64,000 nucleotides of DNA. Origin: Desulfomonilia bacterium (lineage in GTDB: Bacteria; Desulfobacterota; Desulfomonilia; UBA1062). The translations under genes were made by a program, and so were the position numbers. The stretch lies in contig JBEKDT010000001.1 of the NCBI GenBank assembly GCA_050014195.1, positions 96,001 to 160,000 of the forward strand. The letters run 5' to 3'. Of this stretch, positions 3 to 54,701 are shown piece after piece. A model generated the notes under the pieces. That model ran no database searches. It saw nothing but the letters and a program-made list of their open reading frames with translations, and was not told the DNA's origin. Numbering within the stretch: the stretch's first letter is position 1; the number at the start of each line of letters is the position of its first letter.

Positions 3-2864
3 GCAGCAGCCTACCGCTCGCGGGATAAGCTCTATGATGAACGCCTGGACATGACATTCGACTATACGAAGAAAAAGGACCTCGCCTATGCAGAGATCCT
101 CCTTCCGGAAAATGCACCGGAGAGACTGAAAGACCGGCAGACCCTCTGGAATGAAGTCGAAAGAGTCGAGAAACGAAAAGATGCACGCCTCTCCCGGGAA
201 GTCGAGTTAGCTCTTCCCAAGGAACTGAACTTCGAACAACAGGTAGCCCTCGTAAAGGAATATGCACAGAGTCAATTCGTGGACAGAGGCATGATAGCCG
301 ACATCTGCATCCATAAGAGTGATAAAAATCCTCATGTTCATATTATGCTTACAACAAGAGAAGTTACCAGGGATGGCTTTGGTAAAAAAGTAACCGCATG
401 GAATGATAAAGCAGAACTCCTGAAATGGCGGGAAGAGTGGGCGAATATCCAGAACCGGAAATTGCTGGAAGCAGGTCACGATATCCAAGTAGACCACAGA
501 AGCTTTGCAGATAGAGGCATTGACCTTGAGCCGACATCGAAGATCGGGATAGCAGCAAAATACCTGCCCAAAGGTTACCTCCACCTGCAAGAAACCCGAG
601 GACTTGATCGCCTCGAAGAGTACCAGAGGATATGCCGCGAGAACGGAGAACGTATTATCAACGATCCGATAAAAGCCTTGAAGCTCGTTGGGCATTACGA
701 TGCCGTGTTCAAGCGGGAAGACATCATGGATTTTGCCTTCCGGCACAGCGCAGATGCGGATCAGTTCAACCGTGTTTTCTCTGCCCTTGAGAACAGTCAA
801 GAGCTCATCAAGATCGGGAAAAACGAGAAAGGGGAAGACCTGTTCTCTACCCGCACAATGATGATGAGCGAGAAGACCATGCTCGATAATGCGAGAGTCA
901 TGACATCTTCAAACGGTCACGTCCTGGAGCAGGCTATCATCAACCAGACAGCGAAAAACTACACCATGAGCGAGGAGCAGGAAAAGGCATTCAGAAGTAT
1001 CGCAGAGGGCGATGATATCTCCGTCATGATCGGTCGTGCAGGAACAGGGAAAAGCTACACCCTTGGAGCTGTCAAAGAAGCATATGAAGCAGGAGGATAT
1101 CGGGTAAGAGGCCTTGCACTTTCGGGCATCGCAGCAGAAGGCCTTCAGAATGAAAGCGGCATCGAAAGCACAACCATCTTCAGGCAGTTGGATGATTGGG
1201 AAAATGAGAGAAATCTACTCAACAAAGACCAGATCCTGGTGATCGATGAAGCAGGTATGGTTGGAACAAGACAGATGCATAAGATTCTAGAGCACGCCCA
1301 TGATACAGGAGCAAAAGTGATCCTTGTGGGAGACAATGAACAGCTTCAGTCAATCGAGGCAGGAGGATCATTCAGAGGTATTATCCAGAGAACCGGATAC
1401 GTGGAACTTGCAGAAGTGAGAAGACAACATGTTGATTGGCAGAAACAGGCAACCGTAGAATTCTCAGGCAACAAAGAACAAGCAGAAAAAGCCCTGGAAA
1501 TGTACCACGACCATAGTCATATCCATGAACTCCAGACCAGGCAGGACGCCAAGGATCAGATGCTGAAAGAATGGGCGGATCAACAACAACTTTCAAAACA
1601 GAAACACGAGACCAGCCTCATGATGGCCTACACAAACAAGGACGTAAATGAACTTAATCAGGGGGCAAGAGAACACAGAAAAATGCACGGAGAACTTCGT
1701 GGCTACGAACACACATTCATGACCGAAAAAGGAGAGAGAAATTTCTGCACCGGGGACCGGATTATATTCCTCAGGAACGAGCATTCTTTAGGCGTAAGGA
1801 ATGGTTCTCTCGGTACAGTAGAGAGCATCAACCGGGGAGCCATATCCGTCAAACTCGATAAAGGCGACAGGGTCGCTATCGATACCAGCATGTATAAAGA
1901 TTTCGATCACGGCTATGCAGCCACCGTGCATAAGACACAGGGTTCAACACTTGACCATACCTTTGTGCTCGGCTCACGTCATTTTGATAAGCATACTGCA
2001 TATGTTGCCATGAGCAGACATAGAGAAAATGTGACCATGTACTACGGCAAGGATGAATTCAGGAACTTTGAAGACCTGCAGAGAGTCATGAGCAGAGAAC
2101 GGCCTAAGAGTCTGGTTGTTGATTATGGACTGCCCAGGGGCATTGAAGTGGATAACAGAGTCATCGAGGCTGAGAGGGTTATGACTCACGAAGAAAGACG
2201 CATCCAGGCCCAGGAATGGCAACAGCAAAGAGACCAGGAACAGTATGTCAAACAAATGAAGGAAAGAGGCATTCAAGTTGAATTACCCAAAGATAAATCT
2301 GTAGCCGGATACTTTACGAGAGTGGAAGAGATTGGCGGAAGGAAATATGCAGTTATCGATACCCATGCTAATCCAACCAAGGGGAATCGCTACCTGATAC
2401 CCTATGAGAAGCAATACGACCAGATGCAGATGCACCACTATGTAGCCTATGATGGAAAGGAATTGGGATATGCCAAGCGGAGCAGAACCCCTGAGAAGGA
2501 AATACAACAACAAGTTTCTCAGGAGAAGCAGGGAGAAAAAGGCATATCGACACCCGACCGGAAACTTACTCCGGAAGAATTCAATTACTGCCAGCGCATG
2601 CAAGATAGGGGGCTTAAGGTTGACTTCCCAAGAGAAAGGGCTGTGGAAGGCTATTATACAAAGATCGAGGAACTCGGCGGCAATAAATATGCAGTGATTG
2701 AATCGAAGGGTGTTCGCTACATGGTATCCTATGACAAGCAATACGATAAGATGCAGATGCACCGGTATGTTTCATATGACGGTCAAACGATGCGTTCTGC
2801 AAAGGCTCCATCGATAAAAATAGAAAAAAATCAGGGGCTGGGACTTGGAAAGAAGTTAAATTGA
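3..2864 (+). CDS. traA: TraA-type conjugative relaxase (MobA/MobL MOBQ domain + RecD-like helicase), 5' partial
   Basis: The frame is open from base 3 (AAAYRSR, catalytic Tyr motif). NPHVHIMLTTR HUH motif, GRAGTGKS Walker A, IDEAGM, HGYAATVHKTQG, YVAMSRHR. Confidence 0.92.
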   Translation, partial: AAAYRSRDKLYDERLDMTFDYTKKKDLAYAEILLPENAPERLKDRQTLWNEVERVEKRKDARLSREVELALPKELNFEQQVALVKEYAQSQFVDRGMIADICIHKSDKNPHVHIMLTTREVTRDGFGKKVTAWNDKAELLKWREEWANIQNRKLLEAGHDIQVDHRSFADRGIDLEPTSKIGIAAKYLPKGYLHLQETRGLDRLEEYQRICRENGERIINDPIKALKLVGHYDAVFKREDIMDFAFRHSADADQFNRVFSALENSQELIKIGKNEKGEDLFSTRTMMMSEKTMLDNARVMTSSNGHVLEQAIINQTAKNYTMSEEQEKAFRSIAEGDDISVMIGRAGTGKSYTLGAVKEAYEAGGYRVRGLALSGIAAEGLQNESGIESTTIFRQLDDWENERNLLNKDQILVIDEAGMVGTRQMHKILEHAHDTGAKVILVGDNEQLQSIEAGGSFRGIIQRTGYVELAEVRRQHVDWQKQATVEFSGNKEQAEKALEMYHDHSHIHELQTRQDAKDQMLKEWADQQQLSKQKHETSLMMAYTNKDVNELNQGAREHRKMHGELRGYEHTFMTEKGERNFCTGDRIIFLRNEHSLGVRNGSLGTVESINRGAISVKLDKGDRVAIDTSMYKDFDHGYAATVHKTQGSTLDHTFVLGSRHFDKHTAYVAMSRHRENVTMYYGKDEFRNFEDLQRVMSRERPKSLVVDYGLPRGIEVDNRVIEAERVMTHEERRIQAQEWQQQRDQEQYVKQMKERGIQVELPKDKSVAGYFTRVEEIGGRKYAVIDTHANPTKGNRYLIPYEKQYDQMQMHHYVAYDGKELGYAKRSRTPEKEIQQQVSQEKQGEKGISTPDRKLTPEEFNYCQRMQDRGLKVDFPRERAVEGYYTKIEELGGNKYAVIESKGVRYMVSYDKQYDKMQMHRYVSYDGQTMRSAKAPSIKIEKNQGLGLGKKLN

Positions 2865-2875
2865 AGAGGGAATAA

Positions 2876-3559
2876 TCATCTCAAAACGTGCTCCATGATT
2901 TCAGGAGAATCATTCCGAGGATCGTTCACAAGTTTCGAGACTTCATATGCTTCCATCTCCTCGGCAGGATAAGGCTTAAGGCAATTCAGCAAGGCAGCTT
3001 CCTCTTCTCTCTGTGAACTCAGCCACGACTTGAAGCAATCAGGAGATAGGATAGCAGGCATCCTGTCATGGATCTTTTTGATCAGTGAATTTGCTTCCGT
3101 GGTGATGATCGTGCTTGAGATGATCGTATTTCCGGTTTCCTTATCACGCCACCTATCCCAAAGCCCAGCAAAGACGATGGGCTTTCCGCTTTTTAGCTTG
3201 ATGAGGTAAGGCGTCCTTGTCTTATTCGCAGTATCCCATTCATAAAACCCCATTGCCGGGATGATGCACCTGGTTCGTTTGAGTGGCTCTTTAAAAGACG
3301 GTTTCTGTGTAAGCGTCTCCGCCCTGGCATTTATCAACCGGTTCCCGATGTTCTTATCTTTTGCCCAGTAAGGTATAAGTCCCCAACGAGTGAGGGTAAG
3401 CCTCGGCGTAGGGGTATTAATCACGGTCAGAATATCTTTCGTGGGCGTGACGTTATAGCTCTGGGTAAAGTGACTCAGAGCCTCCTCGTCCACTTCCAAC
3501 TCTGAGAAGCCTACCTCGATCTGCTCTGGGTCAATGATCTGGATGAAACGGCCGCACAT
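2876..3559 (-). CDS. SOS response-associated peptidase (SRAP/YedK family)
   Basis: MCGRF N-terminus (start moved to 3559), WGLIP, INARAET, GFYEW, HDRMP motifs. Confidence 0.93.
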   Translation of the reverse strand: MCGRFIQIIDPEQIEVGFSELEVDEEALSHFTQSYNVTPTKDILTVINTPTPRLTLTRWGLIPYWAKDKNIGNRLINARAETLTQKPSFKEPLKRTRCIIPAMGFYEWDTANKTRTPYLIKLKSGKPIVFAGLWDRWRDKETGNTIISSTIITTEANSLIKKIHDRMPAILSPDCFKSWLSSQREEEAALLNCLKPYPAEEMEAYEVSKLVNDPRNDSPEIMEHVLR

Positions 3560-3700
3560 TATTCGTTCCTCTTCTGATATACTGGGTTGTACATCAAATA
3601 ATGATAAGTTGTCCATGCACAGGAGCTTTGCACGGTTATCCAGATCTCTTCCCCCGCTCTCCTTTACAGTCAACTCCCGTGGTGTTAGTATCTCCTGCTT

Positions 3701-4153
3701 GTGACAAAAATCTCAGAAAAAAACGAATTGCGTGTTACAGGAATCTGGGGCTTCGAAAGCAAGTCTAGCCTCAAGATACCCCTCTTCTCTGTAGGCATAT
3801 CTGCTGGATTCCCCTCACCGGCAGAAGACAGCATTGAAAAGAATCTCGACCTCAATGAGTTTCTCATCAAACATCCGTCTGCAACATTCTTTGTCCGAGT
3901 TGCAGGAGATTCGATGACCGGGGCGGGTATTCATACCGGCGATATCCTCATCGTAGACAGAGCTTTGGAACCAAAATCGGGTAATGTGGTGATTGCCATG
4001 GTCAATGGCGACTTTACAGTGAAAAGGTATAACCACATAGATGGCAGATGTTTCCTCCTGGCTGAAAATTCTCAGTTTAAGCCTATCGAGATAACGGACG
4101 GCATGCAGGTGGAGGTGTGGGGAGTCGTTTCTTACGTAATCCACAAGGTGTGA
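3701..4153 (+). CDS. umuD: UmuD/LexA-family S24 peptidase, Pol V accessory subunit
   Basis: SAGFPSPAED cleavage site, GDSM catalytic Ser, FTVKR catalytic Lys, VWGVV. Confidence 0.93.
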   Translation: MTKISEKNELRVTGIWGFESKSSLKIPLFSVGISAGFPSPAEDSIEKNLDLNEFLIKHPSATFFVRVAGDSMTGAGIHTGDILIVDRALEPKSGNVVIAMVNGDFTVKRYNHIDGRCFLLAENSQFKPIEITDGMQVEVWGVVSYVIHKV

Positions 4154-4156
4154 TCA

Positions 4157-5416
4157 ATGGAACAGATCTTTGCTCTGGTAGACTGCAACAACTTTTATGC
4201 ATCCTGCGAACGTGTTTTTAACCCTTCTATTGATGGTAAACCGGTTGTCGTACTTTCAAACAATGATGGGTGTATCATAGCCAGATCAAACGAAGCTAAG
4301 GCATTAGGCATTAAGATGGGAGAACCTCTGCATCAGTGTCAAACTCTCATCGCAAAAAACAAAGTGCACGTCTTTTCATCTAACTTCCCGCTATATGGCG
4401 ATCTGTCTGCCCGTGTAATGGGGACACTTGCTACCTTTACTCCCGAGATGGAGGTCTATTCAATAGATGAGGCTTTTCTAGATCTCACCGGCATTCCTGA
4501 GAACCTCACTGAGTATGGAAGAATTATCAGGAAGACCGTAAAAAGATGGGTCGGCATCCCTGTGTCCATCGGGATAGCTCCCACCAAAACACTTGCTAAG
4601 GCTGCTGCAAAGCTAGTGAAGAAGCGGAGTGAATATCAAGGAGTATTCGATATCACAGACCACATAGAAACCCTCGCCGACATTGATGTGGGAGATGTAT
4701 GGGGGGTTGGTTGGCAGTATACCAAGCTCCTCAGGCGACATGGGATCTTGACTGCGCTGGATTTGAGGAATGCACCTGCTTCCTGGGTTAGAAAGCACAT
4801 GACTGTTGTGGGCCTGCGCATAGTTATGGAGCTTAGAGGTACGTCCTGCATACCCCTTGATGAAGGAGAGCAACCCAAAAAGTCCATTATGTGCTCCAGG
4901 TCCTTTGGCCGTAAGGTCTATACCCTTAATGAGCTTAAGGAAGCTGTATCCGCTTATACATCCAGGGTATCCGAGAAACTGCGTGAACAGAATTCTGCTG
5001 CATCCATCATCCAAGTGATGCTCATCGAGTTTCCATTCAATGATGGGCATCCAAGGACTCATTTCTGCTCTACCACAATTCCTGTTGCCACCTCGTACAC
5101 CCCTGACCTCATACGGTATGCCAAGGCCCTTCTGGAACGTGTATACCGGAAAGGTCCGGCATATAGGAAGGCAGGGGTAATGCTCTCCGGAATATGTCAG
5201 AGAGGACAGGTGCAAATGAACCTTTTCCACACCAGTCGTGAAGGGGAACAAGAGCTAAAACTCATGCAGACCGTGGATGAAGTAAACAGGCGATGGGGCA
5301 GAGGAACTCTCATCCATGCCTCCTCCGGCTTCGCGCGACCGTGGTGGATGAGGCAGACAAGGCGATCTCCCCAATTCACGACATCCTGGACAGATATCCC
5401 GGTTGTAAAGGCTTAA
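4157..5416 (+). CDS. umuC: Y-family DNA polymerase V catalytic subunit
   Basis: DCNNFYASCE, VLSNNDGC, YSIDEAF, C-terminal W-MRQ-RRSP-FTT-W (DUF4113-like). Directly follows umuD. Confidence 0.95.
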   Translation: MEQIFALVDCNNFYASCERVFNPSIDGKPVVVLSNNDGCIIARSNEAKALGIKMGEPLHQCQTLIAKNKVHVFSSNFPLYGDLSARVMGTLATFTPEMEVYSIDEAFLDLTGIPENLTEYGRIIRKTVKRWVGIPVSIGIAPTKTLAKAAAKLVKKRSEYQGVFDITDHIETLADIDVGDVWGVGWQYTKLLRRHGILTALDLRNAPASWVRKHMTVVGLRIVMELRGTSCIPLDEGEQPKKSIMCSRSFGRKVYTLNELKEAVSAYTSRVSEKLREQNSAASIIQVMLIEFPFNDGHPRTHFCSTTIPVATSYTPDLIRYAKALLERVYRKGPAYRKAGVMLSGICQRGQVQMNLFHTSREGEQELKLMQTVDEVNRRWGRGTLIHASSGFARPWWMRQTRRSPQFTTSWTDIPVVKA

Positions 5417-5477
5417 TTCTCTTTCTTCTCGTTCACCTAAATCAATTTTACATACTCAAAGTTAAGGAGGGTATATT

Positions 5478-6254
5478 TCACTTAGTGCTGTCAATGATTG
5501 CTTTTAACAAAGAAACCGACATAGCCACCTGCTTCAAAGCTTCATCCTCGGTAATGATTCTCTTCTGTGCGTAACACTTATTAGCCAAGCCGATTGAGCT
5601 ATTTGCTATCTTTGATATCTCCCTCTTAAGATCATCAATGGATTTGATTTGAATCGGAGTTACCATCTTTTCAAAAGCTCGCTTCTTTTCAGTGCTAAGA
5701 GGTAAGACGGAGTCTAATGCATCATCAAATTCAGCGTGATGTTCTTTGCTCCACTTGCCTATTTCAGTATATACCTTCCCATCACCGGTAGGAGAGCTAT
5801 CATAGGGGAAATTATGAAGAGGTTGAGATAGATCACCGACATAATGGGCTATGTTACCGAGATAATAATCATACTCCCATCCCCTTGACCCTTTCAGCTT
5901 TTTATAAAGCTGCACTATCTCCCAGTATAAGACCCCGGATGAATCGGGAACTCTAATCTTGATTGGTTGTGATCCTGGGGAACCCAATTTTTGATAAGTA
6001 CCTACGGTTATCTGATACCGGTCAATATATTCCGGAGTAACAATGGTATTAGGAGCAGCATCATGCCAGTGATACGGAACTAATAAGGCATATTCTTCAT
6101 TCCTGGAGAGATCAGGGAAACATGCTGTTTCAGGATCTGCAATACCAGCCTCTTGGGCAATAAGTATGTGGGTTATTGATGACCATGCCTGAGCATTAGT
6201 TGAAAGAATGAGTATTGTAAGGATACTTATAATGGCTCTCGATGAATATTTCAT
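5478..6254 (-). CDS. Secreted S1/P1 nuclease / Zn-dependent phospholipase C fold protein
   Basis: Signal peptide ending AQA, then W-x4-H; PD; WH; HYVGDLSQPLH; HAEFD Zn-ligand pattern. Confidence 0.75.
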   Translation of the reverse strand: MKYSSRAIISILTILILSTNAQAWSSITHILIAQEAGIADPETACFPDLSRNEEYALLVPYHWHDAAPNTIVTPEYIDRYQITVGTYQKLGSPGSQPIKIRVPDSSGVLYWEIVQLYKKLKGSRGWEYDYYLGNIAHYVGDLSQPLHNFPYDSSPTGDGKVYTEIGKWSKEHHAEFDDALDSVLPLSTEKKRAFEKMVTPIQIKSIDDLKREISKIANSSIGLANKCYAQKRIITEDEALKQVAMSVSLLKAIIDSTK

Positions 6255-6411
6255 AATTGACCTCACTTTGTTGGCAGTAGGGAATCACAGTTGAAATGTC
6301 ATATGATACTGAAATAATTATATCATATTATTATGGAATAATCCACTTTGAGCTGACCTCCTGGTTGTTCTAACGTATCTGATTGTATGGTGGTGATGTT
6401 TATATGGTGGA

Positions 6412-6440
6412 TTGAGTCCTTTATGATAGTATGCTATTAT
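6412..6440 (+). promoter_or_regulatory. Sigma70-type promoter
   Basis: TTGAGT (6412-6417), 17-bp spacer, extended TGn, TATTAT (6435-6440). Predicted +1 at ~G6447. Confidence 0.65.
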
Positions 6441-6446
6441 TCAATT

Positions 6447-6770
6447 GGGAGGCGTAGCTTCCCCATCACCTTCAGCCTGAAAAGGCGAAAGGAGGCTTCA
6501 CATGAGTAAGCTCATTGCTTACCTAATGATGGGGCGGCGTTCGTTTGTGGCTGAATTCTCGATTTGAAAAACTCCGGACCGTGGTAGCCCAATAGCTATC
6601 GCGATTCCATTCTCATTCTCGACCGGAGTCACAAGGGGCACCTGTCGTTGCGTCGATGACGCAACGAGCCAAGAAGACTAGCGATTGTCCTATCGTCGCG
6701 GTCAGGCCCAGCAGGTGTTACACACCGCTGTCAGAATTCTGATTGCGAACGTGTGTAGCGCCTCCCTTTA
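6447..6770 (+). ncRNA. Putative ~320-nt multi-stem structured RNA of unknown class (contains a 21-codon sORF at 6502-6567)
   Basis: Terminal GGGAGGCG/CGCCTCCC helix followed by T-tract, at least 7 nested helices, a GAAA tetraloop, G-U pairs favouring the + strand, and an upstream promoter. Confidence 0.65.
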
Positions 6771-6878
6771 ATGGATTTCATAGGAGGCGGTTCTCTGTTC
6801 CCTGTAAGAAGTCGAGGAAGTGCTTGTAGTTGCTGTTGAATCTCAGCGGTGTGGAGTATCATATTAGTAATGAAGAGT

Positions 6879-6905
6879 AAAAGTGCAGTATAGTTATTGT
6901 TGAGC
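6879..6905 (+). other. attI-like integron recombination site (copy in ICE)
   Basis: AAAAGTGCAGTATAGTTATTGTTGAGC matches 53459-53481 at 22/23 nt up to the GTT core. Confidence 0.6.
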
Positions 6906-6939
6906 TACTCAATAATCCTATGAAATTAGGTAGAAACTG

Positions 6940-7719
6940 ATGTCAAATGGCAATTTGAGTGCAAACTCACTTTTTCATTTTACAAATACACTAGATAAAT
7001 TACAAAGCATTTTGATCGATGGTTTTTGGCCCAGATACTCTCTTGAGACTTGGGATATTATTATTGATAACCCTATGGAATATGCATTTCCAATGGTTTG
7101 TTTTTGCGATATTCCGTTAACGCAAACAAGAAAACACACAGATCTTTACGGGCAATATGGCATAGGTTTAGATAAACGCTGGGGCATTAGAAAAGGCATC
7201 ACGCCGGTATTATATGCATATAAGGGCTCCAGAACCACTGCTCTGCTTGCAGCAATATATGATGATATGATTAATAAAGATAAATTAGTTCCTTTGGATG
7301 AGAAACTTCACAAAGATTTTATGGATTTTATTATGTTCACAAAGCCATATAGTGGCCCTATATGGCGTGATGGCAACTATATCCCTGGCGAAATAAGGTT
7401 TTACGATGAAAGAGAGTGGCGCTATATTCCAGACATTATAATGACAGAAGGAATAAGTTTATTATACGTGAATAATGCTATCTATAAACATGAATTTTTG
7501 AATGATCAATATCGAGAGAGCCAAGAAAAATTGCTACAACCTTATAATCTTGTCTTTTTTCCAGAGGATATCCGTTACATTATAGTTAGCAGCGAAGCCG
7601 AGATGTTATCTCTTTTTACTTTTCTTGATAGTGAATTGACACATAAATATAATGAGTTAGATTTGCAACTTCTTAAAACGAAAATTATTTCGGTTGAACA
7701 AATTGTTTCAGACTTTTAA
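6940..7719 (+). CDS. Abortive infection AbiGi-like protein
   Basis: LFHFT...L-SIL--GF-PRYS-E, PMVCFCDIPL, YGQYGIGL-K-WG, FYDEREWRY are typical of the AbiGi family. Confidence 0.8.
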   Translation: MSNGNLSANSLFHFTNTLDKLQSILIDGFWPRYSLETWDIIIDNPMEYAFPMVCFCDIPLTQTRKHTDLYGQYGIGLDKRWGIRKGITPVLYAYKGSRTTALLAAIYDDMINKDKLVPLDEKLHKDFMDFIMFTKPYSGPIWRDGNYIPGEIRFYDEREWRYIPDIIMTEGISLLYVNNAIYKHEFLNDQYRESQEKLLQPYNLVFFPEDIRYIIVSSEAEMLSLFTFLDSELTHKYNELDLQLLKTKIISVEQIVSDF

Positions 7720-8091
7720 TTAAATACATTAACTGTGATTTAATACAAATGGTCGTCAACAAAGGCATTCTCTCTAATTCAAAAAGTTGGCGCTTTTGTC
7801 TAGATAATGCCCGTCATTCAGCAGAGGCAGAGGAGTAATAATGTTTTCATCGAAAATGGTTTTGAGTTTTCCGTGTGAAGGGGGGATGTTTTATCTTCTT
7901 AATCAACACCTTTCCTGTCCGATGATCCCGTGACACATCTCCATTCCAAGTTAATAAGACCATTTACAGAGATTTGTTTCTCAGAACAGTTAGTAGAGAT
8001 CTTCGAATGAAACCTTCAAAATTGGTAAATAGTTGCTGATGGTAGGTTCAAAGAGATGAAAAAGAAAAGTGATATCTGATATCCAAATTAA

Positions 8092-11000
8092 TTATACTGG
8101 TGGTTTTTGAAAATTAATCCCAAAAACACGTAAGTCTTTATTATAATTCTGATGCTTTACCTCAGCGTCAGCGATCTTTTCAAGATGATGTACAAGTTCA
8201 TCATATGACAATCTCATGTTACTTTTATCATCGACCCAATGTTGTTTGTTGCCTTTACCTATATATCCCAAGACATAAACACCAAAGTTTGAATCTGGTG
8301 CTCGAAGATACTTTCCAAGCAATTGATCTATTAATCCTTTATTAAGTTGATCTAGAGACCAATTTTCTGCCCATTTAATTTCTATGGATACAGGTCCCAT
8401 ACCTGGAGCCTCGATGCGTAAATCAGGTTGTTGTTCTAAATCTATTTCCTCTTCTTGAGTTACAGTATAACGACCTCTTGATTTATTACGAAGTTGTCTT
8501 GCTAACCAACTTCGCAATACTGATTCCTCATCATCAATGTGTAGATCATAACGAGAACTAATGTCACCTCGCTCCACCTCGTCTTTGATAGAGAAAAATC
8601 TTTTACATGCTATTTTAAAAAGCTCATAATCTGATTGAGGAGATACCTCGTGTTCATGCATAAAATCCTGAATGTCTTTAGGTTGCCATGGTATTAATTC
8701 GGATGATAGTTCGATCCTCTTTTCGATAAGGTGAAAAATATAATCACGGTAAATGCTAAAAATCGGATCTCCCAGAAATGAACGCAACACATTATCCACT
8801 TCGGGATCTGATAAACGAGAAAACCGTTCAATTAGACTATTTCTAAAATCTTGAGCATGATCACGTGACGTGAGAGTGTATACACCTCCATTTGTTCTAT
8901 CAAGATCATCTTCAAATCTTATATAATGAAATACCATCGGTATGAATTCTTGTAAAAATTCAGTCTTTAAATAATCTGGGTTTTCAATCAAAGGATAACT
9001 TAATTTTGAATGTGTGCTTAGCCCATTACAGATTTCTATAATAAGGTTGGAAGGTTCTTGTATTTGAGTGAGTATATTCTTTAAGGTTGTAATTGCAGAA
9101 ACTGAATCGAGTTGGATCCACACTATCATCCAAAGAACAAATCGAGGGTCATTAATCTGATAATTAGCTATACGTTGAGAAGCAAGGGTACTTAGGGGCA
9201 GTCGTGGAGGATCAGATAGTCTCAAGAGAATAAAGATAGCTGTTTCTAAAACATCGTAATGTGGGGGGTCATTAATCTGTAGGTTTTTTAATATATCAAC
9301 TGCTACTAAAGATCCCACACCTCCCGTATCATATTTTAAAGAACTTAATACCTGATTAAAATGTTCATGATCAGCTGGGATCAGCCACTCTCCATGTATA
9401 CATTCATTTAACACGGCCCGTACAATATCTGGATGATATTTGGCTAGCTCTAGCAACCAATCTGAGAAGCCATTGAGCTCATTCAGTGCATACCTACATG
9501 CAAGATCTGCCTCTGTAGGAGTTATGATACTGAAGTCTAGACTTCCATCAGCTAACGAACTCTTAATACCGCTCAAGCCAATAATGACACGATAATCTGT
9601 TCTATTTGTATTTGCTTTTTCATGAGGTAATGGAGGTTTCCATTGATGCCAAACAACTTTCCATCCAGTGATGGCAGCTCGTGCAATAAGGCCACCTCTT
9701 TTTCTTATTAGTATATGCGCACTATCTGCCCCAAATTGATTCATATTTTCAGTTGCTTCGATAGCAAGTCTATAGAGAGCAAAAATAGCTGTTCCATTAC
9801 GTAGGTTTTGATGGTTCCAGTAAAGCCACATTTTATCGCGTAACTTCGAATAACATTGTCTAATCATATTTTTTGAATTTCTGACTATTTGCTCTATGCT
9901 GTAGATTTTGTGGCGATAGAAAAAAAATCTGATCTTATTTGATATCTTAATGGTAGATTCTTTTTTAAATAGGCGGACAAGCTCATGATCGCACTTGATC
10001 GCACTTTTAAATAATTTCCGAACAGAGCGCTTCCTTCCTGACTGTAGCCATAGATAAACTGCAATTTCCAGAGCAATGTTTTTAATTTCTTGCGAAGAAC
10101 CTTCTTGAATATCTTTAATGAGCCATTCTATATCAGCCTCCCGCAGTTGGACCATATCAAAGTGGTACAAAACTAAAGACGGTGATAGTTCATCAGCTGG
10201 TTTTGTATGATTCATTTGGTTGATACATTCCCACACATAGGCACGCCGCACAGTAGGATGTTTATCAAGAAGAGTATTGAAATTGCCAGATAGATCACGA
10301 TCAAGTTTGCCACACTTCTGAAAAATGCCAAGTAACCAAAGAGCTCTTGCAGCTATACCCATATCATGGTCATCTAGTTGTTGCCAGTGCAGAAGACTAA
10401 TTAGGACCACGGGTATCACTTCGCCAAGCCAATAAAACTGTTCAGAGATAGGAGTTTCTTTATTAGCATAATGAAGATGTGGGGTTTTTTGAGCAAGATC
10501 TATCAACACCTGTAACATTTCTGAAGCTTGTTTGATCGGAAGATGGTCCTGTAGGTGCTTTTTAAGATACCATGGCAGATCAACAAATCGGCTTGCTACT
10601 CTCTCAGCCTTGCATAGAAGAGTGGATAACCCCTTAGGGTCTAAAACATAAGGATAGATTGTCTCACAGATTAATGAACATAAGTGGGTCTCAAACGTAT
10701 TATACTTATTCGCTATTTCTGCCAGTTTTTCTCGTGCATTTTGATCTCCTATATCCCGGATAGCAGCAACCGCATAAGATTTTAGTGTACCAGGTTCATC
10801 TGGCGAATCGACTATGTCTAAGACGACATCGAGGCAATCCAAGAGTTTTCCATGTCGAATCATTTGGATGAGCATGATTCTTATTTCTAGTGGGTTTGTC
10901 CGCTCTCTCAACATAGTTGAGAGCTGGGGAGCCATTTTTTGATCAGCCATGCGGCTTAAAGCTTCGTCTTCTGTGTCTACATATATCCGCTCTCGTCCAC

Positions 11001-12378
11001 GGAAACGAGTGATAAGGTTTTGTAAGAGAGCCTCTCTATATTCAACAGGTAGAGATTCAGCATCTCCGAGTGTCAAGAATAAATCGGGAGCAGTATCTAG
11101 AATCTGTTTACGAAGTCTCAAGTTCCAACTCTCAGTTCCTAGTGCAAGCCAAGCCGCAAATGGCTTAAGGCTAGGACGGATAATTCTATGCCCGTCACGA
11201 CAAGCGAAAAGCAGGACTTCTAGGTCGGGATAAGGGCAGCCCTCCTTCATGCGTTGCTCCAGCCACGATGCCCCTATGTATTCAGCCATACGACGATGGT
11301 GGAATCGTATACGCCCATAGCTCGCTGAATCGAATACAGGACGATTGAGTATAGCCCTGCACATAGCCGGGGTCCATTCAGTAGGCAAACATTGTTCAGC
11401 AACTAATGCACCGCTTGTATCAGTTACAGGAATATTATCAGGGACAAAAAAATTGAAACACCTACATAGATGTACAGCCGCACCTAGACATTCTGCTCCA
11501 AGACGAGATTGTTGCGGAGAAAGAGGATCGTTCTGTATACGATCTGAGGTCTCTCTGAGCTTATTCGTAAGGTTGAATTCAATTAATTCGGATAGAGTTC
11601 CAAATTGGCCATGTTCATGCCAATAGTTGATAAGGACGGCTATATCATTTGGGCGACGAACGAATTCCCAAGCGTGATGGGTATCTATTTCATCTATAAA
11701 AGCTTCAGGATTCTCTAATCCAACTCCTTCTGCAAACGTTCGTACTCGAGAATGGTCCAACGGCATTATTTGGACAACACGAAATTCAGGAGTTTTAACA
11801 ATACCTTCTCCTTCTTCATTAGTTCTCCTCGTGGAAGTGCTACCAAATCGTTGAAGAAGTTCCTCCCGATCCGCATGAACCCGCCATTCAGTTATTCTTG
11901 AACTTATAACAATACGTATTAATCGAGCTTGTTTTGTTCCAACTCCACGTACAAAGTTATCTAAAGCCTGGGCAAAATCTTTTTGTTTTCTAAATTTTGT
12001 CTCATCCACAGAATCTAAAAAAAATATAATCTCACCACCAAGTTTTTCCCATTTTGAAAATTGTTCTATGTCGTTAGAAAGTAAGGATTCTTCTATATTA
12101 GTAGATTCTACCAGGCGGTCCAAATGGATGAAGAATGAAAAGTGTTGCTTTCGCGATAATATGTTGGCTTGGTTACGTAATTCCCATGTCTTCCCGCTGC
12201 CTGCCTCACCTAATATGACCACAATGCGGCTTTCATAAATATCTTTCCATCCAAGCCCTGACTCTTGCCCAGAAAGTAACGATGTGTAACTATGGAATGC
12301 AGCATCTTCATTCTCATTCAATTCTGTAATATCTTGAAAGCGCCTATCTAACTCTATGAATCGATTGAACTCTATCAA
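8092..12378 (-). CDS. Large STAND/NACHT-like NTPase with C-terminal PD-(D/E)XK nuclease, probable antiviral protein
   Basis: LGEAGSGKT Walker A, FFLDSVDE Walker B, ISSR sensor, RFHH winged helix, long helical region, C-terminal EEE...PDLRI...SIEIK. TTG start with AGGAG. Confidence 0.75.
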   Translation of the reverse strand: MIEFNRFIELDRRFQDITELNENEDAAFHSYTSLLSGQESGLGWKDIYESRIVVILGEAGSGKTWELRNQANILSRKQHFSFFIHLDRLVESTNIEESLLSNDIEQFSKWEKLGGEIIFFLDSVDETKFRKQKDFAQALDNFVRGVGTKQARLIRIVISSRITEWRVHADREELLQRFGSTSTRRTNEEGEGIVKTPEFRVVQIMPLDHSRVRTFAEGVGLENPEAFIDEIDTHHAWEFVRRPNDIAVLINYWHEHGQFGTLSELIEFNLTNKLRETSDRIQNDPLSPQQSRLGAECLGAAVHLCRCFNFFVPDNIPVTDTSGALVAEQCLPTEWTPAMCRAILNRPVFDSASYGRIRFHHRRMAEYIGASWLEQRMKEGCPYPDLEVLLFACRDGHRIIRPSLKPFAAWLALGTESWNLRLRKQILDTAPDLFLTLGDAESLPVEYREALLQNLITRFRGRERIYVDTEDEALSRMADQKMAPQLSTMLRERTNPLEIRIMLIQMIRHGKLLDCLDVVLDIVDSPDEPGTLKSYAVAAIRDIGDQNAREKLAEIANKYNTFETHLCSLICETIYPYVLDPKGLSTLLCKAERVASRFVDLPWYLKKHLQDHLPIKQASEMLQVLIDLAQKTPHLHYANKETPISEQFYWLGEVIPVVLISLLHWQQLDDHDMGIAARALWLLGIFQKCGKLDRDLSGNFNTLLDKHPTVRRAYVWECINQMNHTKPADELSPSLVLYHFDMVQLREADIEWLIKDIQEGSSQEIKNIALEIAVYLWLQSGRKRSVRKLFKSAIKCDHELVRLFKKESTIKISNKIRFFFYRHKIYSIEQIVRNSKNMIRQCYSKLRDKMWLYWNHQNLRNGTAIFALYRLAIEATENMNQFGADSAHILIRKRGGLIARAAITGWKVVWHQWKPPLPHEKANTNRTDYRVIIGLSGIKSSLADGSLDFSIITPTEADLACRYALNELNGFSDWLLELAKYHPDIVRAVLNECIHGEWLIPADHEHFNQVLSSLKYDTGGVGSLVAVDILKNLQINDPPHYDVLETAIFILLRLSDPPRLPLSTLASQRIANYQINDPRFVLWMIVWIQLDSVSAITTLKNILTQIQEPSNLIIEICNGLSTHSKLSYPLIENPDYLKTEFLQEFIPMVFHYIRFEDDLDRTNGGVYTLTSRDHAQDFRNSLIERFSRLSDPEVDNVLRSFLGDPIFSIYRDYIFHLIEKRIELSSELIPWQPKDIQDFMHEHEVSPQSDYELFKIACKRFFSIKDEVERGDISSRYDLHIDDEESVLRSWLARQLRNKSRGRYTVTQEEEIDLEQQPDLRIEAPGMGPVSIEIKWAENWSLDQLNKGLIDQLLGKYLRAPDSNFGVYVLGYIGKGNKQHWVDDKSNMRLSYDELVHHLEKIADAEVKHQNYNKDLRVFGINFQKPPV

Positions 12379-12403
12379 TTTCTGCTCCTAATTGAAAACA
12401 TTA

Positions 12404-13321
12404 TTAAGTTTGATTGCCTTGAAAATGCCTTGGGTTCATCGCCCCCCTCATATCATCAGCAATTTCCAAACAGTTGGTATGGGTTATAAGGTTATTGTTA
12501 TGTACAAGGAAAAACTCAAGTTCGAAGTCGGAGGGGTAACTTTTATGATGTTTCCACAAAAAAAGTATTCCATGTATTGTGGAACGGAACATAGAGAACT
12601 TAGCAACAAACTCATGGATTAACGCAGGGTGATCATGTCGATCTTCCTGAAAAAGACCAAAAATATCTCTGCGTGCAAACTCGGGAACCATGGGATCACC
12701 ATAAGTGACGAGCATACAATCAAAATGGTCAATCATACCAAGGTGGAGATCAGAGACCTCAACAACGATTATATTGTAGTCATCTGGCCCACCCAGGGAA
12801 AACTTTATCAGATTTCCTTCGGAGTCCTGTGCTTTGGAGAGAATCAAGCGCTGCAGCCTAAGCGTGTCTGCACGGTCATCATTTCCCCCAAGGTGGACTT
12901 CGTAGAAGTTGGATTGACCAAGTTGTTCATCAATAAGATCTGTAATAGCGAGACGCTGGTTAACTTGCCGCATCTCCATGTAAAGATTTTTCCCAGATGG
13001 GATTCTTCTGTAGAAATCAATTGTCATTTCATCATCAGATCTACATCGTACCTCATAGTTTAAGGGTTTGTTGGCTGATTCAAATTGATAGGCGAACGTA
13101 GCTTCTAGAATAAGACTATGTAGATTTGCCTTGTTATTGGCTGCAAAAAGATTAGATAACAACTTTGAAAAACGGCTGGCCTGACGAAGCAAGAGTAGCT
13201 TCCTTGCTAGCGGAAATAAGATGATCTCAGGCTCCTCTATCGAATGACCGGAAGCAGCAAATGAGGCTGCCAATTTTGGAAGCAGTGTGTCTATAAGAAC
13301 CTCCTTATTTCGACATATCAA
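12404..13321 (-). CDS. Hypothetical protein, possible PD-(D/E)XK-fold nuclease
   Basis: 305-aa ORF with LEA..A / IDF / MEMR pattern. Ends 25 bp upstream of the STAND gene. Confidence 0.5.
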   Translation of the reverse strand: MICRNKEVLIDTLLPKLAASFAASGHSIEEPEIILFPLARKLLLLRQASRFSKLLSNLFAANNKANLHSLILEATFAYQFESANKPLNYEVRCRSDDEMTIDFYRRIPSGKNLYMEMRQVNQRLAITDLIDEQLGQSNFYEVHLGGNDDRADTLRLQRLILSKAQDSEGNLIKFSLGGPDDYNIIVVEVSDLHLGMIDHFDCMLVTYGDPMVPEFARRDIFGLFQEDRHDHPALIHEFVAKFSMFRSTIHGILFLWKHHKSYPSDFELEFFLVHNNNLITHTNCLEIADDMRGAMNPRHFQGNQT

Positions 13322-13578
13322 GGGGCATCTGGTGAACTTGACCGAACAACGACACCTGTTTGCACAATCTGGTACACACCTTTCTGTAGCAAGTTTACCA
13401 CCATACCATCGGAAGTACGTAACTCCTTAACCCCTTCAGTAACAGCGTTTGGATTTTCGAAGCTACTGGCGTCGAGAAGATCAGTGTAAATATAGATGGT
13501 GTATTGACGTCCATCGTCTCCCTTGGCTTTGATACTTTCAGTCTTTCTCTTCATAAGAGTGTCTCCTCTGACAAACAA
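13318..13578 (-). CDS. Small hypothetical protein
   Basis: 86-aa ORF overlapping the next gene by 4 bp; AGAGGAG before an internal ATG. Confidence 0.55.
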   Translation of the reverse strand: MFVRGDTLMKRKTESIKAKGDDGRQYTIYIYTDLLDASSFENPNAVTEGVKELRTSDGMVVNLLQKGVYQIVQTGVVVRSSSPDAP

Positions 13579-13717
13579 TACTATACTACAATATTATAAT
13601 TCTCAAATTTAAGATAATGTGAAGATCTTGTGCCATACTCAACGCTATGATTAAACTGGATAATTACATTGATAATCTTCAAAAGTTAACAAGTCAGGGG
13701 GCTGTTAATTTCTATAA

Positions 13718-13927
13718 TTATAGTTGTTTCTCAATCCACTGCAAGGCATCATTGGGGCTATCAAAAACCTTAGCGGCCCGCTCTTCTTCTCCACCCTTAT
13801 CGATTGCTGCCTGATACTTATCACCGGACAAACCCTTTTGTTTATGGATATGACCAATGAGGATATTATTCTTATAAACTTTAAATGAAGCGCCATCACT
13901 AGATGTAGATTTCAATGCGATCATCAC
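13718..13927 (-). CDS. Small hypothetical protein
   Basis: 69-aa ORF co-oriented with, and 10 bp downstream of, the 126-aa ORF. Confidence 0.45.
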   Translation of the reverse strand: MMIALKSTSSDGASFKVYKNNILIGHIHKQKGLSGDKYQAAIDKGGEEERAAKVFDSPNDALQWIEKQL

Positions 13928-13936
13928 TGCCCATTC

Positions 13937-14317
13937 TTATGTGCGAGGTATAGAAACAAATCTTATGGCCCTTAGAATAACAACTCCTTTGATTATCATC
14001 AAGATGCCAATGAGGTTTACCAAACATCCAAGTACTATCAGCCATGTCGTAGAACCCAATATCACAAAAATACCGCAAGCAAACACAAGAATCCCGGCTA
14101 GTAGATGAAGTATATAGGACTGGTGCCATATGATCTGCTTCGAGATATTGTAACAGGCATATGGAATGATAAGCCCACACCGAAAGAACCCAGCAACAGT
14201 CACCTGGTCTCCATTACTTACAACCGGAGGTTCTCCTGATAGTACCTTTACAAAACAGTCTCCAACCTTGAATAGATTATACTTGGCTTCAGAGGCGCTC
14301 CCTTCACGCTTTACCAC
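13937..14317 (-). CDS. Hypothetical membrane protein
   Basis: Abuts the trbB stop; two C-terminal hydrophobic helices. Confidence 0.45.
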   Translation of the reverse strand: MVKREGSASEAKYNLFKVGDCFVKVLSGEPPVVSNGDQVTVAGFFRCGLIIPYACYNISKQIIWHQSYILHLLAGILVFACGIFVILGSTTWLIVLGCLVNLIGILMIIKGVVILRAIRFVSIPRT

Positions 14318-15274
14318 TTATCCCTCCAGAAACCTCAAAATATACTCATCGTCTCTGCAGCTATCAACAGTGGCAATGCTATCAACCTTTCGCCCGTGCC
14401 CTTCTCTCTTGATGTACACCAGGACATTTACTGTTGCAGCGATCAGGCTCCGTGGCACTCCGGGTACAACCTCCTGAACCAGTTGCTCTATCCGAATGAG
14501 CCCTTCCCTTGGACCATTTGCATGGATAGTACACAGCCCACCTGGATGGCCGGTGTTCCATGCTTTCAGGAGGCCCAGGGCTTCACCACCCCGCACTTCT
14601 CCGACAATGATTCTGTCGGGTCGTAGCCGCATGGTTGCTTTCAGCAAGGTGGTGATATCTGCTGCATCACAGGTCCTCAGAGAGACACAATCCTTAACCT
14701 CGCACTGAAGTTCAAGGGTATCTTCTATGAGCACAATACGATCCTCGTATTGTGCTATCTCGGCAAGGATGGCATTAGCCAGTGTTGTCTTTCCGGAGCC
14801 GGTCCCGCCCACAACAAGGATGTTCTGTTTATCCCGGACCGCCTCTTTCAGGAAGTCGGCAGCTTCACCGATCATGATTCCCTGGCTCACATAATCATCC
14901 AGGGTGTAAACCATAAGGGCCTTTTTACGAATTGTGATGGTTGGCCTTTCAACAACCGGAGGGAGCATCCCCTGAAATCGTTCTCCTGATCCCGGAAGCT
15001 CCGCAGAGAGAATAGGGTTATCCGCATTGCATATGGTGTTCGTCTTCGAGCTGACTATCCGTATGATTCTTTCTGCATCAGCAGTGCTCATGTCCTGACC
15101 TGTATAGGACCGTCCTGAACTTAACCGGTCAACCCACAGACAACCATCAGGGTTGAGCATAATCTCGATCACATCTTTATCCTGCATAAGATCCTGAATA
15201 GTTGGGCCGAAGGAGCTCGTGAGCATGTCGTAGACCCTACTGTTCATTTGCTGTTCACGTTTTCTAAAATCCAT
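14318..15274 (-). CDS. trbB: P-type conjugative transfer ATPase TrbB (VirB11)
   Basis: GGTGSGKTT, IEDTLEL, MRLRPDRIIVGEVRG, WNTGHPGG-TIHAN. Confidence 0.95.
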   Translation of the reverse strand: MDFRKREQQMNSRVYDMLTSSFGPTIQDLMQDKDVIEIMLNPDGCLWVDRLSSGRSYTGQDMSTADAERIIRIVSSKTNTICNADNPILSAELPGSGERFQGMLPPVVERPTITIRKKALMVYTLDDYVSQGIMIGEAADFLKEAVRDKQNILVVGGTGSGKTTLANAILAEIAQYEDRIVLIEDTLELQCEVKDCVSLRTCDAADITTLLKATMRLRPDRIIVGEVRGGEALGLLKAWNTGHPGGLCTIHANGPREGLIRIEQLVQEVVPGVPRSLIAATVNVLVYIKREGHGRKVDSIATVDSCRDDEYILRFLEG

Positions 15275-15287
15275 ATGAGCAGCTCCT

Positions 15288-17075
15288 TTAACACACAGCT
15301 TGTGAGATGCTTTCTTCTTCTCCGGCAGGAGAGGACTTCTCAACCTTTTCAACCTTCGGTGTAGGTTTCAAAAGGAGATTTTCCCTCATAACAAACACCG
15401 GTGCTTTATCCGGATAAATCTTGTATTTGAAAGTGCTTATCAGTGGATCATACGACTTGAACCTTACTATGGCTGTAAGGTCAGTGAGTTTCATGAGTTC
15501 TGCGGGCAGGAAGAGACTTTCTCTCTTTGTCCGCTCAGCCAGGGAAGTCCCATCCCGATTATCGTTCACACCCATGGACCGGGTCTTGTTCATTTCAATA
15601 TATTCTGTTTCACTCAAGATATCGGTGCTGATCCTTGCAGATATCGGGTCATCCACGTTAAACATAATCTTATTTCCACAGGCATTGATAATGCTCTGCC
15701 GGTGATTGACAGAATATGTCTGATCGATCTGCCCGTAGTCCTGGATGCCGATGAAGACACATCCTCCCTTGCTCCGGGCCATGGTCAGTAGCTTGACAAT
15801 CGTGGGAAGTCTCTGTAGGGTCCCAAACTCATCCAGGAAAAAAAAGATCCTCCTCTCTGTTGACTCAGACAGAGATAACACCTGCCTCCCGAGCAAATCC
15901 ACAAAGAGGGATAGGATGGGCCGGAGGGCCTCCTGAATGATCGAGTAATTTGTGATGTAGATCATGCCTTTACCATTCTGCAGCCAGTCCTTGATTTTGA
16001 ATGGGCCATCGATTTGAGACATGTACTTGAGGCCCTTTGCGTATTCCATCAAGGTTCCGAAAACTCCCAGGGCTTGGGTAGATCCAGGCAATTCAATATG
16101 TTTTGCCGCCCCTTTGCCTTCATCAATGCTCTGCAGCTTTTCTAGAACATATTCTGCCTTTGAAGTAACGATATCCCAGATATGCTTATTGTTGGTCTGA
16201 TTCTCACTGTACAGGTAATGAAGAATCCCAGCAAAAACATCCCGCGCCGCATCCGGGAAGAATGTATCCATCTGTGAGATGGAATGAGGAATAAGGGAAG
16301 TTGCCATGGCATCAATATCCATAGGGGTCTCGATCTCGTTGAAAAGATTCCAACCAACGGATCTTGCATCGAGGGGATTGAAGATGATGTCCTTTTCCTC
16401 GTCATAGAATCTTCTGAGATAATCGCCTTTGAAGTCATAGATGATTGCCTGTGCATTCCGTTTCTTCAAGTCTTCAATGATCTGGGCTGCACAATTTGTT
16501 TTTCCAGCTCCTGGTCCCCCGATAATAAACGTGTGCCTTGGTTCTAAAGATTTGGGCATACGGACACTGCCAATATGCAGTCCGGGCTCATCTTTCCTTT
16601 TCTTCACTTCATAATTGAATTCTTGAATCGTACTGAGTCTTGATCCTCGGATATGTCTCCGGTCAGACTGATACTTTGCCTTGTCATGAAAGAACATCCA
16701 GGTCGGGATATAAAAAATGTACACAGATGAACACCAGAAGAAGATGTTACGCATGGTATGAAATATGTAGATTGAATAAGTTCGCAGGGGAGCACAGGCT
16801 GCGATTCTCTGGGCAGGGGCATATACTATTGTGCCATTAGGGTTTATGAACTTCAATCTTGCTGTCGGCCACATGATGTATGCAAAGAGCCATTGAGAGG
16901 CTGAACGGATTGAGGCCTTATCGATTTTGTACCAGCAGGCGAGGAAGAACAGCAGTACATGGAAGCAGAAGAGTATGGTTATAATCTTGGTATGCATCTG
17001 GATGGACATGCGGACTTGGTTCCACCAGGTTTCGAACCCTTCATAGCTCTGGCTTTGTACCGGGTATTTTTTCAT
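15288..17075 (-). CDS. Type IV coupling protein, TrwB/TraD-like
   Basis: Two N-terminal TM segments, HIRGS, GGPGAGKT, IYDFKGDY, FNPLDARSVGWN, FLDEF, GIQDYGQ. Confidence 0.88.
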   Translation of the reverse strand: MKKYPVQSQSYEGFETWWNQVRMSIQMHTKIITILFCFHVLLFFLACWYKIDKASIRSASQWLFAYIMWPTARLKFINPNGTIVYAPAQRIAACAPLRTYSIYIFHTMRNIFFWCSSVYIFYIPTWMFFHDKAKYQSDRRHIRGSRLSTIQEFNYEVKKRKDEPGLHIGSVRMPKSLEPRHTFIIGGPGAGKTNCAAQIIEDLKKRNAQAIIYDFKGDYLRRFYDEEKDIIFNPLDARSVGWNLFNEIETPMDIDAMATSLIPHSISQMDTFFPDAARDVFAGILHYLYSENQTNNKHIWDIVTSKAEYVLEKLQSIDEGKGAAKHIELPGSTQALGVFGTLMEYAKGLKYMSQIDGPFKIKDWLQNGKGMIYITNYSIIQEALRPILSLFVDLLGRQVLSLSESTERRIFFFLDEFGTLQRLPTIVKLLTMARSKGGCVFIGIQDYGQIDQTYSVNHRQSIINACGNKIMFNVDDPISARISTDILSETEYIEMNKTRSMGVNDNRDGTSLAERTKRESLFLPAELMKLTDLTAIVRFKSYDPLISTFKYKIYPDKAPVFVMRENLLLKPTPKVEKVEKSSPAGEEESISQAVC

Positions 17076-17099
17076 AACATTCCATTCCTCCTTTGCAGA

Positions 17100-17627: not shown

Positions 17628-17640
17628 TTACACTCATCAC

Positions 17641-18951: not shown

Positions 18952-18985
18952 GCCATGTTGATATCAGTTCACAAAACTCTCCTGA

Positions 18986-19975: not shown

Positions 19976-19993
19976 GAATTCACTTCCCTCCTC

Positions 19994-21671: not shown

Positions 21672-21698
21672 GCTTCTACCTCACGGTTATTCCATTCT

Positions 21699-21839
21699 TC
21701 ACGGAAGATCCTTCATTGGTGTGGCTGTTGATTTCTTTGTTCCCCAATCTCTCATGGGGTCTTTTTTCGAGTTATCCGAACTACTGCAACTGGCAAGAAC
21801 CAATATGATAACTCCACAGGCTATTACTTTCTTAATCAT
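21699..21839 (-). CDS. trbK: 46-aa lipoprotein, probable entry-exclusion TrbK (not in ORF track)
   Basis: MIKKVIACGVIILVLASC lipobox, GGAGG SD, position between trbJ and trbL. C-terminus duplicates that of TrbJ. Confidence 0.75.
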   Translation of the reverse strand: MIKKVIACGVIILVLASCSSSDNSKKDPMRDWGTKKSTATPMKDLP

Positions 21840-53221: not shown

Positions 53222-53458
53222 TACAGTCTAAGCCGATTTGTAGAGCAGCATGGAATTGAATGTTAAGAGCTTACCTGTCTTTGAAGGAGGGTCCACAAAA
53301 ACTCCACGAATCCACCCTTTGGGCACGGAGTTTGGGCTCTTGAAGCTGAAATACGTTACTATCAGGAATATTTATGTCTATATATCTATAACAGGGTAAT
53401 GCCTTGCACTCAATATCCGGATATACTGCAATCGTGCATCAAATATTGGATATGCTGC

Positions 53459-53485
53459 AAAAGTGCAGTATAGTAATTGTTAGGC
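53459..53485 (+). other. attI-like site heading the array
   Basis: The GTTAGGC core at 53479-53485 is complementary to GCCTAAC of the first attC and has no attC palindrome upstream. Confidence 0.7.
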
Positions 53486-54607: not shown

Positions 54608-54626
54608 CAATGTTTTGGCTATCATA

Positions 54627-54683
54627 GCCTAACCATCGCATCCACCGGACGGCTAAAGCCGCCGGTGATGCACATCGTTCGCC
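54627..54683 (+). repeat. attC 1
   Basis: GCCTAAC...GCATCCACCGG..CCGGTGATGC...GTTCGCC. Confidence 0.9.
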
Positions 54684-54701
54684 AAATAATCTGAGATTAA
54701 A

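Follow-up and report, generated by a model that had tools for sequence, protein, structure and literature searches.

The integron site attI is multi-copy in one peat-bog genus of Desulfomonilia, where its copies are often orphaned from intI and front different, often defence-like genes. The attI-type junction carried by an ICE of this genus is most likely a scar rather than a working dock, and the specific claim we make for it is modest. Integrons and conjugative elements are two principal routes for the exchange of accessory genes among bacteria, and each is now known to hold anti-phage systems. A joint linking an integron to an ICE would reveal how a sedentary cassette gains the ability to be transmitted. 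The multiplication of attI across the genus lies outside the standard picture of integrons and may matter more than the ICE stub. It fits recent laboratory evidence that attI sites and stubs of attI can take the place of attC (PMC12901181), and the genus is a natural system in which to ask whether genes flanked by attI move.

The window is the whole stretch of DNA that was analysed, 64 kb long. Coordinates without a contig prefix are positions in this window; G000 is the genome that contains it (4.2 Mb, 29 contigs), C followed by a number denotes one of its contigs, and L other loci or contigs. The features discussed below are collected in Table 1.

Table 1. Positions of the features described in the text.
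Feature	Position	Strand	Remarks
Delta-attI stub	6876..6901	+	last 23 nt (6879-6901) are the exact attI core; up to 3 extra bases match weakly; GTT is 6899-6901
Leader, crossover to AbiGi ATG	6902..6939	+	38 nt; first-cassette-like geometry
Lone AbiGi-family gene	6940..7719	+	259 aa, full length
Non-coding stretch after AbiGi	7720..7972		no attC; contains the CGTCAAC/GTTGGCG pair, 7754-7792
Pre-attI fragment	7973..8042	+	70 nt, ~250 nt past AbiGi; cut off after ...CTGATGG
Spacer, ICE backbone to stub	6377..6878		502 nt, unique, non-coding, hairpin-rich
Variable defence-cargo hot spot	6377..13627		AbiGi, 1428-aa STAND-like NTPase, ORFs of 305 aa and 86 aa
Full-length orphan attI	53382..53481	+	profile positions 5-102, E 1.4e-22; heads the chromosomal cassette array
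attC of the first chromosomal cassette	54625..54689	+	covariance model 67.4 bits; fold z -4.76
ICE-2 and ICE-3	C1:300048-325001 and C7:92417-125809		same genome; ICE-3 circularly permuted relative to ICE-1
attI copies near ICEs	C1:81451-81541, C1:85489-85591 (- strand); C1:295808-295895; C7:130335-130435		

An earlier note on this DNA had reported a near-identical pair of 23-mers, one in the ICE (6879-6901) and one in the chromosome (53459-53481), whose identity ends at a GTT triplet. Both observations held. Each site, on the plus strand, fits the pattern AAAAGTGCAGTATAGTWATTGTT exactly, none of 100 dinucleotide-preserving shuffles matched it, and the two copies diverge directly after the triplet (GTTGAGC in the ICE, GTTAGGC in the chromosome). 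The genome-wide search for the 23-mer that had been proposed as a check gave 15 matches at three mismatches or fewer and none for a reversed-pattern control, and the shuffles and this control together rule out a chance match. The view that a single chromosomal attI had been copied once was abandoned. Alignment of the copies and their flanks revealed a conserved element of ~100 nt whose 3' end is the 23-mer; conservation ends at GTT, and a different ORF follows each copy. An nhmmer profile of the element found 19 near-full-length copies and one half copy in this genome; short copies at C6 and C2 and in relatives were internal-deletion variants of it. The element was found in 9 of 41 genomes searched (this one, seven of 14 from the same genus, and one from another genus of the family), and it was usually multi-copy where present, at 6-19 copies per genome in the genus.

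The earlier note had also taken the motif for the crossover-proximal core of a genuine attI, and this was borne out. In G008, a genome of the same genus, the full element (L058 2530-2627, E 2.9e-21) lies ~70 nt from the start of a divergent intI at 2460 and is followed by attCs at 3158-3206 and 3853-3905. In the window, the R'' of the first cassette's attC (GCCTAAC, 54627-54633) mirrors all seven bases at the junction (GTTAGGC, 53479-53485) as their reverse complement. Because the G008 homologue adjoins intI and the junction heptamer is mirrored in the attC, the chromosomal site is, by these comparisons, a true attI. A survey of the junctions of 20 copies (the 19 full copies and the ICE copy) showed that nine end in GTT in register, and for six of these nine an exact reverse-complement heptamer was located 650-1148 nt downstream, where an attC-like site directly follows the first ORF. 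The full element was beside intI at one of eight IntI loci examined, that of G008; three more share only its last 14-23 nt.

Other identities for the element were considered and rejected. An unusual attC was discarded, as the element shows no R''/R' hairpin fold and merely a local 9-bp palindrome. A general regulator box in front of ordinary genes was discarded as well, since every copy of the palindrome with two or fewer mismatches falls within attI-family matches. For a known RNA family, Rfam searches at E<=1 over four attI loci returned only chance-level hits to mir-3914 (E 0.72) and CsrC (E 0.43); at the gathering threshold there was no match in the whole window, and at E<=1 there was nothing over 6270-8100. 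An IS91-type element sits at the crossover in G002 and G003, yet it is absent from this genome and was rejected as the agent that spread attI. In these two relatives, three attI copies (L033, L051 and L056) have an insertion exactly at the crossover, which encodes first a tyrosine recombinase of 286 aa and then an IS91-family transposase. Separately, a palindromic repeat of ~50 nt containing CACTCGCTCACCGGGTTCAA adjoins, in both orientations, the upstream side of the attI copies at C15, C9:38770, C28, C6, C2 and C3:203292; it also occurs after an attC and resembles a REP- or MITE-type element.

The statement that neither site of the window has an adjacent intI was confirmed, and the genome-wide search for intI suggested along with it showed that nothing in this genome exceeds the TIGR02249 cut-off. 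The lone trace was a relic of 60 residues from an IntI C-terminus (C10:179413-179571, minus strand), 43% identical to the G008 IntI, which adjoins an attC array at the contig end. A tblastn search with the G008 IntI for decayed intI beside the orphan attI copies recovered only Xer-like genes and the same relic. True IntI above the cut-off was present in 8 of the 14 same-genus genomes. Since this host lacks IntI, the suggestion that a host integrase acts in trans does not apply to it, and the ICE site is unable to capture cassettes there.

The ICE had been credited with a copy of attI, and the alignments reduced this to a stub of 23-26 nt. Only positions 78-102 of the attI profile aligned (nhmmer, 13.2 bits), and the 85 nt upstream of the stub had an attI score of 18, shuffle-like compared with 20.1 +/- 2.9 for shuffles and 64-89 for four diverged true copies. 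The ICE copy thus fails as a complete attI, as the upstream repeats of all full copies are missing. The stub itself is 23/23 identical to the attI copy on C15. It is a 3'-terminal piece of attI that ends at the crossover and is detached from intI, as in a delta-attI site, but it does not replace a cassette attC within an integron array. The G+C content drops at the stub from 0.482 (6377-6878) to 0.346 (6879-7972), and that of the first chromosomal cassette is 0.352. The gene after the stub had been said to begin 35 bp past the core in the manner of a cassette; its first-cassette geometry was upheld, with a measured distance from GTT to ATG of 38 nt, and at other attI copies the ORF starts ~15-70 nt past GTT. 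The spacer upstream of the stub gave RNA fold z values of -4.94 (plus strand) and -3.91 (minus strand). It had no real match among the 121 other genomes of the class and none in Rfam.

The AbiGi-like identity of the gene after the stub was well supported, with full-length matches to Pfam PF10899 (E 5.7e-36; 124.7 bits against a cut-off of 22.4) and to the PADLOC AbiGi model (E 1.2e-54, covering 14-260 of 260). AbiG is a two-gene abortive-infection system of Lactococcus, composed of AbiGi and AbiGii. No AbiGii partner was detected; the neighbouring ORFs at 8092-12378, 12404-13321 and 13318-13578 had no PADLOC match of any kind, and 6270-8090 contains no further ORF. The G+C content of the gene, 0.346, is as low as that of a cassette.

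A collapsed attC remnant had been proposed for 7754-7792, and this reading was not sustained. The region 7745-7800 folds at -2.8 kcal/mol (z -0.32), with 64 of 200 shuffles folding at least as well, whereas true attCs here reach z -3.9. The attC covariance model, trained on 13 sites having R and L pairs and run with filters off, recovered 10 attCs in 54625-63116, one of them outside the training set. Over 6900-8100 it returned nothing at E<=10, an nhmmer attC profile likewise gave no match, and in 1-44000 the covariance model detected neither an attC array nor a lone attC at E<0.1. The expected R'' (GCTCAAC) does not occur within 6 kb downstream of the ICE junction, and the CGTCAAC at 7754-7760 agrees with it at five of seven positions. 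Lacking an attC, AbiGi is, to judge from these searches, not a mobilisable cassette now.

We also looked for AbiGi elsewhere. The search for its source turned up no locus where AbiGi follows a full attI, and the gene was present in none of the 121 other genomes of the class; its closest relatives in genome contigs were 39% identical. A metagenome scan recovered two loci 100% identical to the window in the same ICE context, plus two distant short contigs. One metagenome contig (L093, 98-930) carries a 37%-identical AbiGi relative; GTTGGCA lies 48 nt ahead of this gene, and 13 nt past its stop codon comes TGCCAAC. From these bounds, AbiGi genes may travel as integron cassettes in other phyla. 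The earlier note had advised a search for AbiGi homologues flanked by attC; cassette-like bounds were seen in one of the three distinct AbiGi contexts examined, that of L093, and the AbiGi of the window itself has no attC.

The first 25.6 kb of the window is a conjugative element (ICE-1), with a MobA/MobL-TraI relaxase, a TrwB/VirD4 coupling protein and homologues of the type IV secretion proteins VirB2, B4, B6, B8, B9, B10 and B11. The shared ICE backbone contains no integrase; an integrase-gene-like stretch of 273 nt lies just outside it, at 26009-26281. A 29-nt direct repeat, 90% identical, is found at window positions -4816 and 25872, and ICE-2 has a 411-aa integrase nearby. Backbone identity to window 21-6376 and 13628-25619 is 88-91% for ICE-2, and ICE-3 matches at 68-81%. 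Because the sister identity stops and resumes at its borders, the stretch between was taken as a cargo hot spot. In ICE-2 this hot spot holds Gabija (GajA and GajB), and in ICE-3 a D12 methyltransferase, an ORC/CDC6-like protein, a CARF protein and a NERD protein. The nhmmer profile detected no attI in the hot spot of either sister. Comparison of related ICEs, which had been put forward as a check, showed differing cargo at the hot spot, and this variability does not involve attI, absent from both. The borders of the hot spot (6376/6377 and 13627/13628) were considered as integron-type junctions and rejected, since neither is a G|TT joint.

Contigs from four metagenome runs were examined at the stub. 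In each run one contig bridges it with the same AbiGi arrangement, and in none of the four was an alternative gene or joint found after the stub. Rare variants are lost from contigs, and the source sample may be run X12. Loose ends in these contigs belong to other genomic copies (C29, C9 and ICE-2).

A second piece of attI-region DNA lies on the far side of AbiGi. Positions 7973-8042 are 87% identical to C29:7448-7517 and 90% identical to C9:8507-8456, and at both of those loci the homologous 70-nt block stands 26 nt upstream of a full attI copy. AbiGi therefore has the 3' end of an attI to its left and the 5' flanking DNA of an attI region to its right, both truncated on their outer sides. 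The left break falls within attI and the right break within the 70-nt block, and neither is at the point where G|TT is cleaved. The presence of this second fragment points to import of a pre-assembled piece of DNA rather than to capture of a cassette at the ICE. There is a hint that the pre-attI block is homologous to the intI-attI spacer of G008, with which it is colinear but only weakly similar, as shuffles equalled or beat the score in a fraction of 0.021 with the C29 copy and of 0.42 with that of the window.

Our preferred explanation, held at slightly better than even confidence, is that the ICE site is a relic, namely a delta-attI stub that belongs to an attI-gene-attI fragment of ~1.16 kb imported without an integron integrase. 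In the genus, an integron attI of ~100 nt has multiplied to ~20 orphan copies per genome, some of them as attI-gene-attI tandems. The fragment at 6879-8042 would comprise the last 23-26 nt of one attI, AbiGi, and the first 70 nt of the region upstream of a next attI; it would have been cut from such a tandem or from its excised circle and have landed in the defence-cargo hot spot of the ICE by integrase-independent recombination. AbiGi may still be read from residual promoter activity, through the retained TATAGT -10 box together with the new upstream DNA. An attI-ORF-attI tandem without attC is present in this genome (C9:8433-6744) and supports the relic, as do the truncated match to the attI profile, the two break points away from G|TT, the drop in G+C at the stub, the missing attC after AbiGi, the attI-free cargo of the sister ICEs and the lack of IntI. 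That the stub, AbiGi and the pre-attI piece arrived together, and by this route, we infer rather than observe, because no source locus with a full attI before AbiGi was found. Other observations count against the relic. The stub is exactly the part that the two attI sequence variants share with each other and with the attIs next to IntI in relatives, a pattern that selection for function would equally produce. Its junction lies precisely at GTT with the ORF in the position of a first cassette, as in a joint made by IntI. Finally, AbiGi occurs in one of 122 genomes of the class, with no full-attI source locus.

A rival proposal is that the stub is a working minimal attI, which keeps the simple site for IntI. 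AbiGi would have been inserted as a cassette while the ICE was in an IntI-positive host and its attC later lost, and the ICE could take up more cassettes each time it enters such a host. The exact G|TT junction and the 23/23 identity agree with this proposal, as does the finding that the last 14 nt of the stub are identical, or 13/14, in the IntI-adjacent attIs of three further relatives; true IntI exists within the genus, stubs of class 1 and 2 integrons with 8-12 nt left of the crossover are IntI1 substrates (PMC12901181), and the AbiGi relative on L093 has cassette-like bounds. We nevertheless regard it as unlikely, given that neither attC nor R'' follows AbiGi, the host has no IntI, the upstream repeats of all full copies are missing, the sister hot spots lack attI, and the site is invariant in all four metagenome runs, though contigs drop rare variants. 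The downstream pre-attI fragment, moreover, plays no role in this scenario. The landing pad of the earlier note, integrase-less and used by the ICE to capture and export defence genes, is a form of this proposal; the activity of short attI stubs in class 1 integrons (PMC12901181) leaves it a small likelihood, but nothing observed here supports or calls for it, and several observations are neutral or contrary.

There is a slightly smaller chance that attI itself is mobile, such that attI-gene-attI units of this genus act as cassettes of an attI type, excise as circles carrying a whole attI and reinsert at secondary sites, including those in conjugative elements. Mobility of this kind would explain the ~20 orphan attI copies per genome, many of them before defence-type genes, and it would also explain the circularly permuted order in the ICE, in which the 3' end of attI comes first, followed by AbiGi and the 5' flank of attI. 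If this were true, integron platforms and ICE defence hot spots would swap genes through attI-bearing circles, and one such exchange would have left the stub as its scar. As a side observation, attI copies, full or diverged, were present within 4-10 kb of all three ICEs. The copies ending at C1:81541 and C1:85591 are probably outside ICE-1, as its backbone and the 29-nt repeat begin at about C1:91184. The copy at C7:130335-130435 stands before a 1355-aa ORF without a Pfam match and is divergent from the gene of a tyrosine recombinase of 364 aa.

It is doubtful that the 23-mer was instead kept as a portable promoter, with its -10 box (TATAGT, ending 7 nt before GTT) and start region driving expression of AbiGi. 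The chromosomal attI does contain a promoter-like TGGATA-16-TATAGT at 53447-53474, a 20-bp palindrome overlaps the -10 box in the manner of an operator, and conservation stops near the expected transcription start. The ICE copy, however, lacks the -35 box and the left arm of the palindrome, a promoter scan found no promoter-like site over the stub (6866-6894), and no copy of the palindrome with two or fewer mismatches lies outside the attI family. Because six of the nine GTT-ending copies are true cassette junctions, recombination, and not transcription, sets the 3' edge of the element. It is quite improbable that some or all of 6377-6901 is a cassette of delta-attI type placed before a resident AbiGi, with the stub as its 3' recombination site, since, although such cassettes with a stub in place of attC are documented (PMC12901181) and 6377-6878 is discrete, unique and of different G+C, that segment has by eye only a 21-codon ORF, its left end (6376/6377) is not a G|TT junction, and AbiGi has the low G+C of a cassette and attI DNA on its other side too.

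We compared the relic with known systems. The published delta-attI stubs, as described in PMC12901181, retain 8-12 nt left of the crossover (one retains 238 nt), lie within integron arrays and were shown to recombine. They and the ICE stub are alike as short 3'-terminal pieces of attI that end at G|TT, lie away from intI and abut a gene. The published stubs are downstream of an ORF and replace its attC, whereas the ICE stub is upstream of its gene, retains ~20 nt left of the crossover and lies in a cargo hot spot with no array or attC. The attI1 of class 1 integrons, according to that report (PMC12901181), has the direct repeats DR1 and DR2 as well as L and R boxes over 65 bp. The full element described here resembles it in having repeated motifs upstream of the crossover, a GTT end, a position adjacent to intI in G008 and cassettes joined at G|TT; it differs in showing no sequence similarity, in its length of ~100 nt and in being present at 6-19 copies per genome in the genus.

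A cluster of attC sites without an integron integrase is termed CALIN (Cury et al. 2016, PMC4889954). The chromosomal attI resembles this in heading an intI-less cassette array, and the genome contains several further small arrays; the ICE locus differs in having no attC at all, and is neither a CALIN nor a single-attC site. Descriptions of CALINs are not known to include a multi-copy attI. A CALIN headed by an attI-like site is noted for a Shewanella prophage (PMC9892861). Genome-wide insertion of cassettes at attG sites (Loot et al., bioRxiv 10.1101/2022.09.11.507474) is similar in offering a route for cassettes outside integrons, including into mobile elements, but it leaves an attC at the 3' end of the cassette and host sequence at the 5' end, and the ICE locus shows the opposite. 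A limited literature search found no description of a multi-copy orphan attI or of an attI stub in an ICE hot spot.

Several further features of the window were recorded. A block at 6279-6375, in the promoter region of an S1/P1-like nuclease, recurs in relatives at ~82-85% identity; in G003 (L080) and G004 (L081) it is in the opposite orientation, ~33 nt upstream of attI-like sites. The block may be a shared regulatory module, perhaps of SOS type, a guess suggested by its adjoining umuDC and SRAP. Within the relaxase gene, a 77-nt direct repeat (2379-2455 and 2706-2782, 81% identical) indicates a duplicated C-terminal module. A low-G+C defence island at 26577-32694 encodes Shedu SduA, a serine/threonine kinase and a UvrD-like helicase, and at 33283-43555 a type I restriction-modification locus is broken up by DUF3800, DUF6946 and GmrSD genes.
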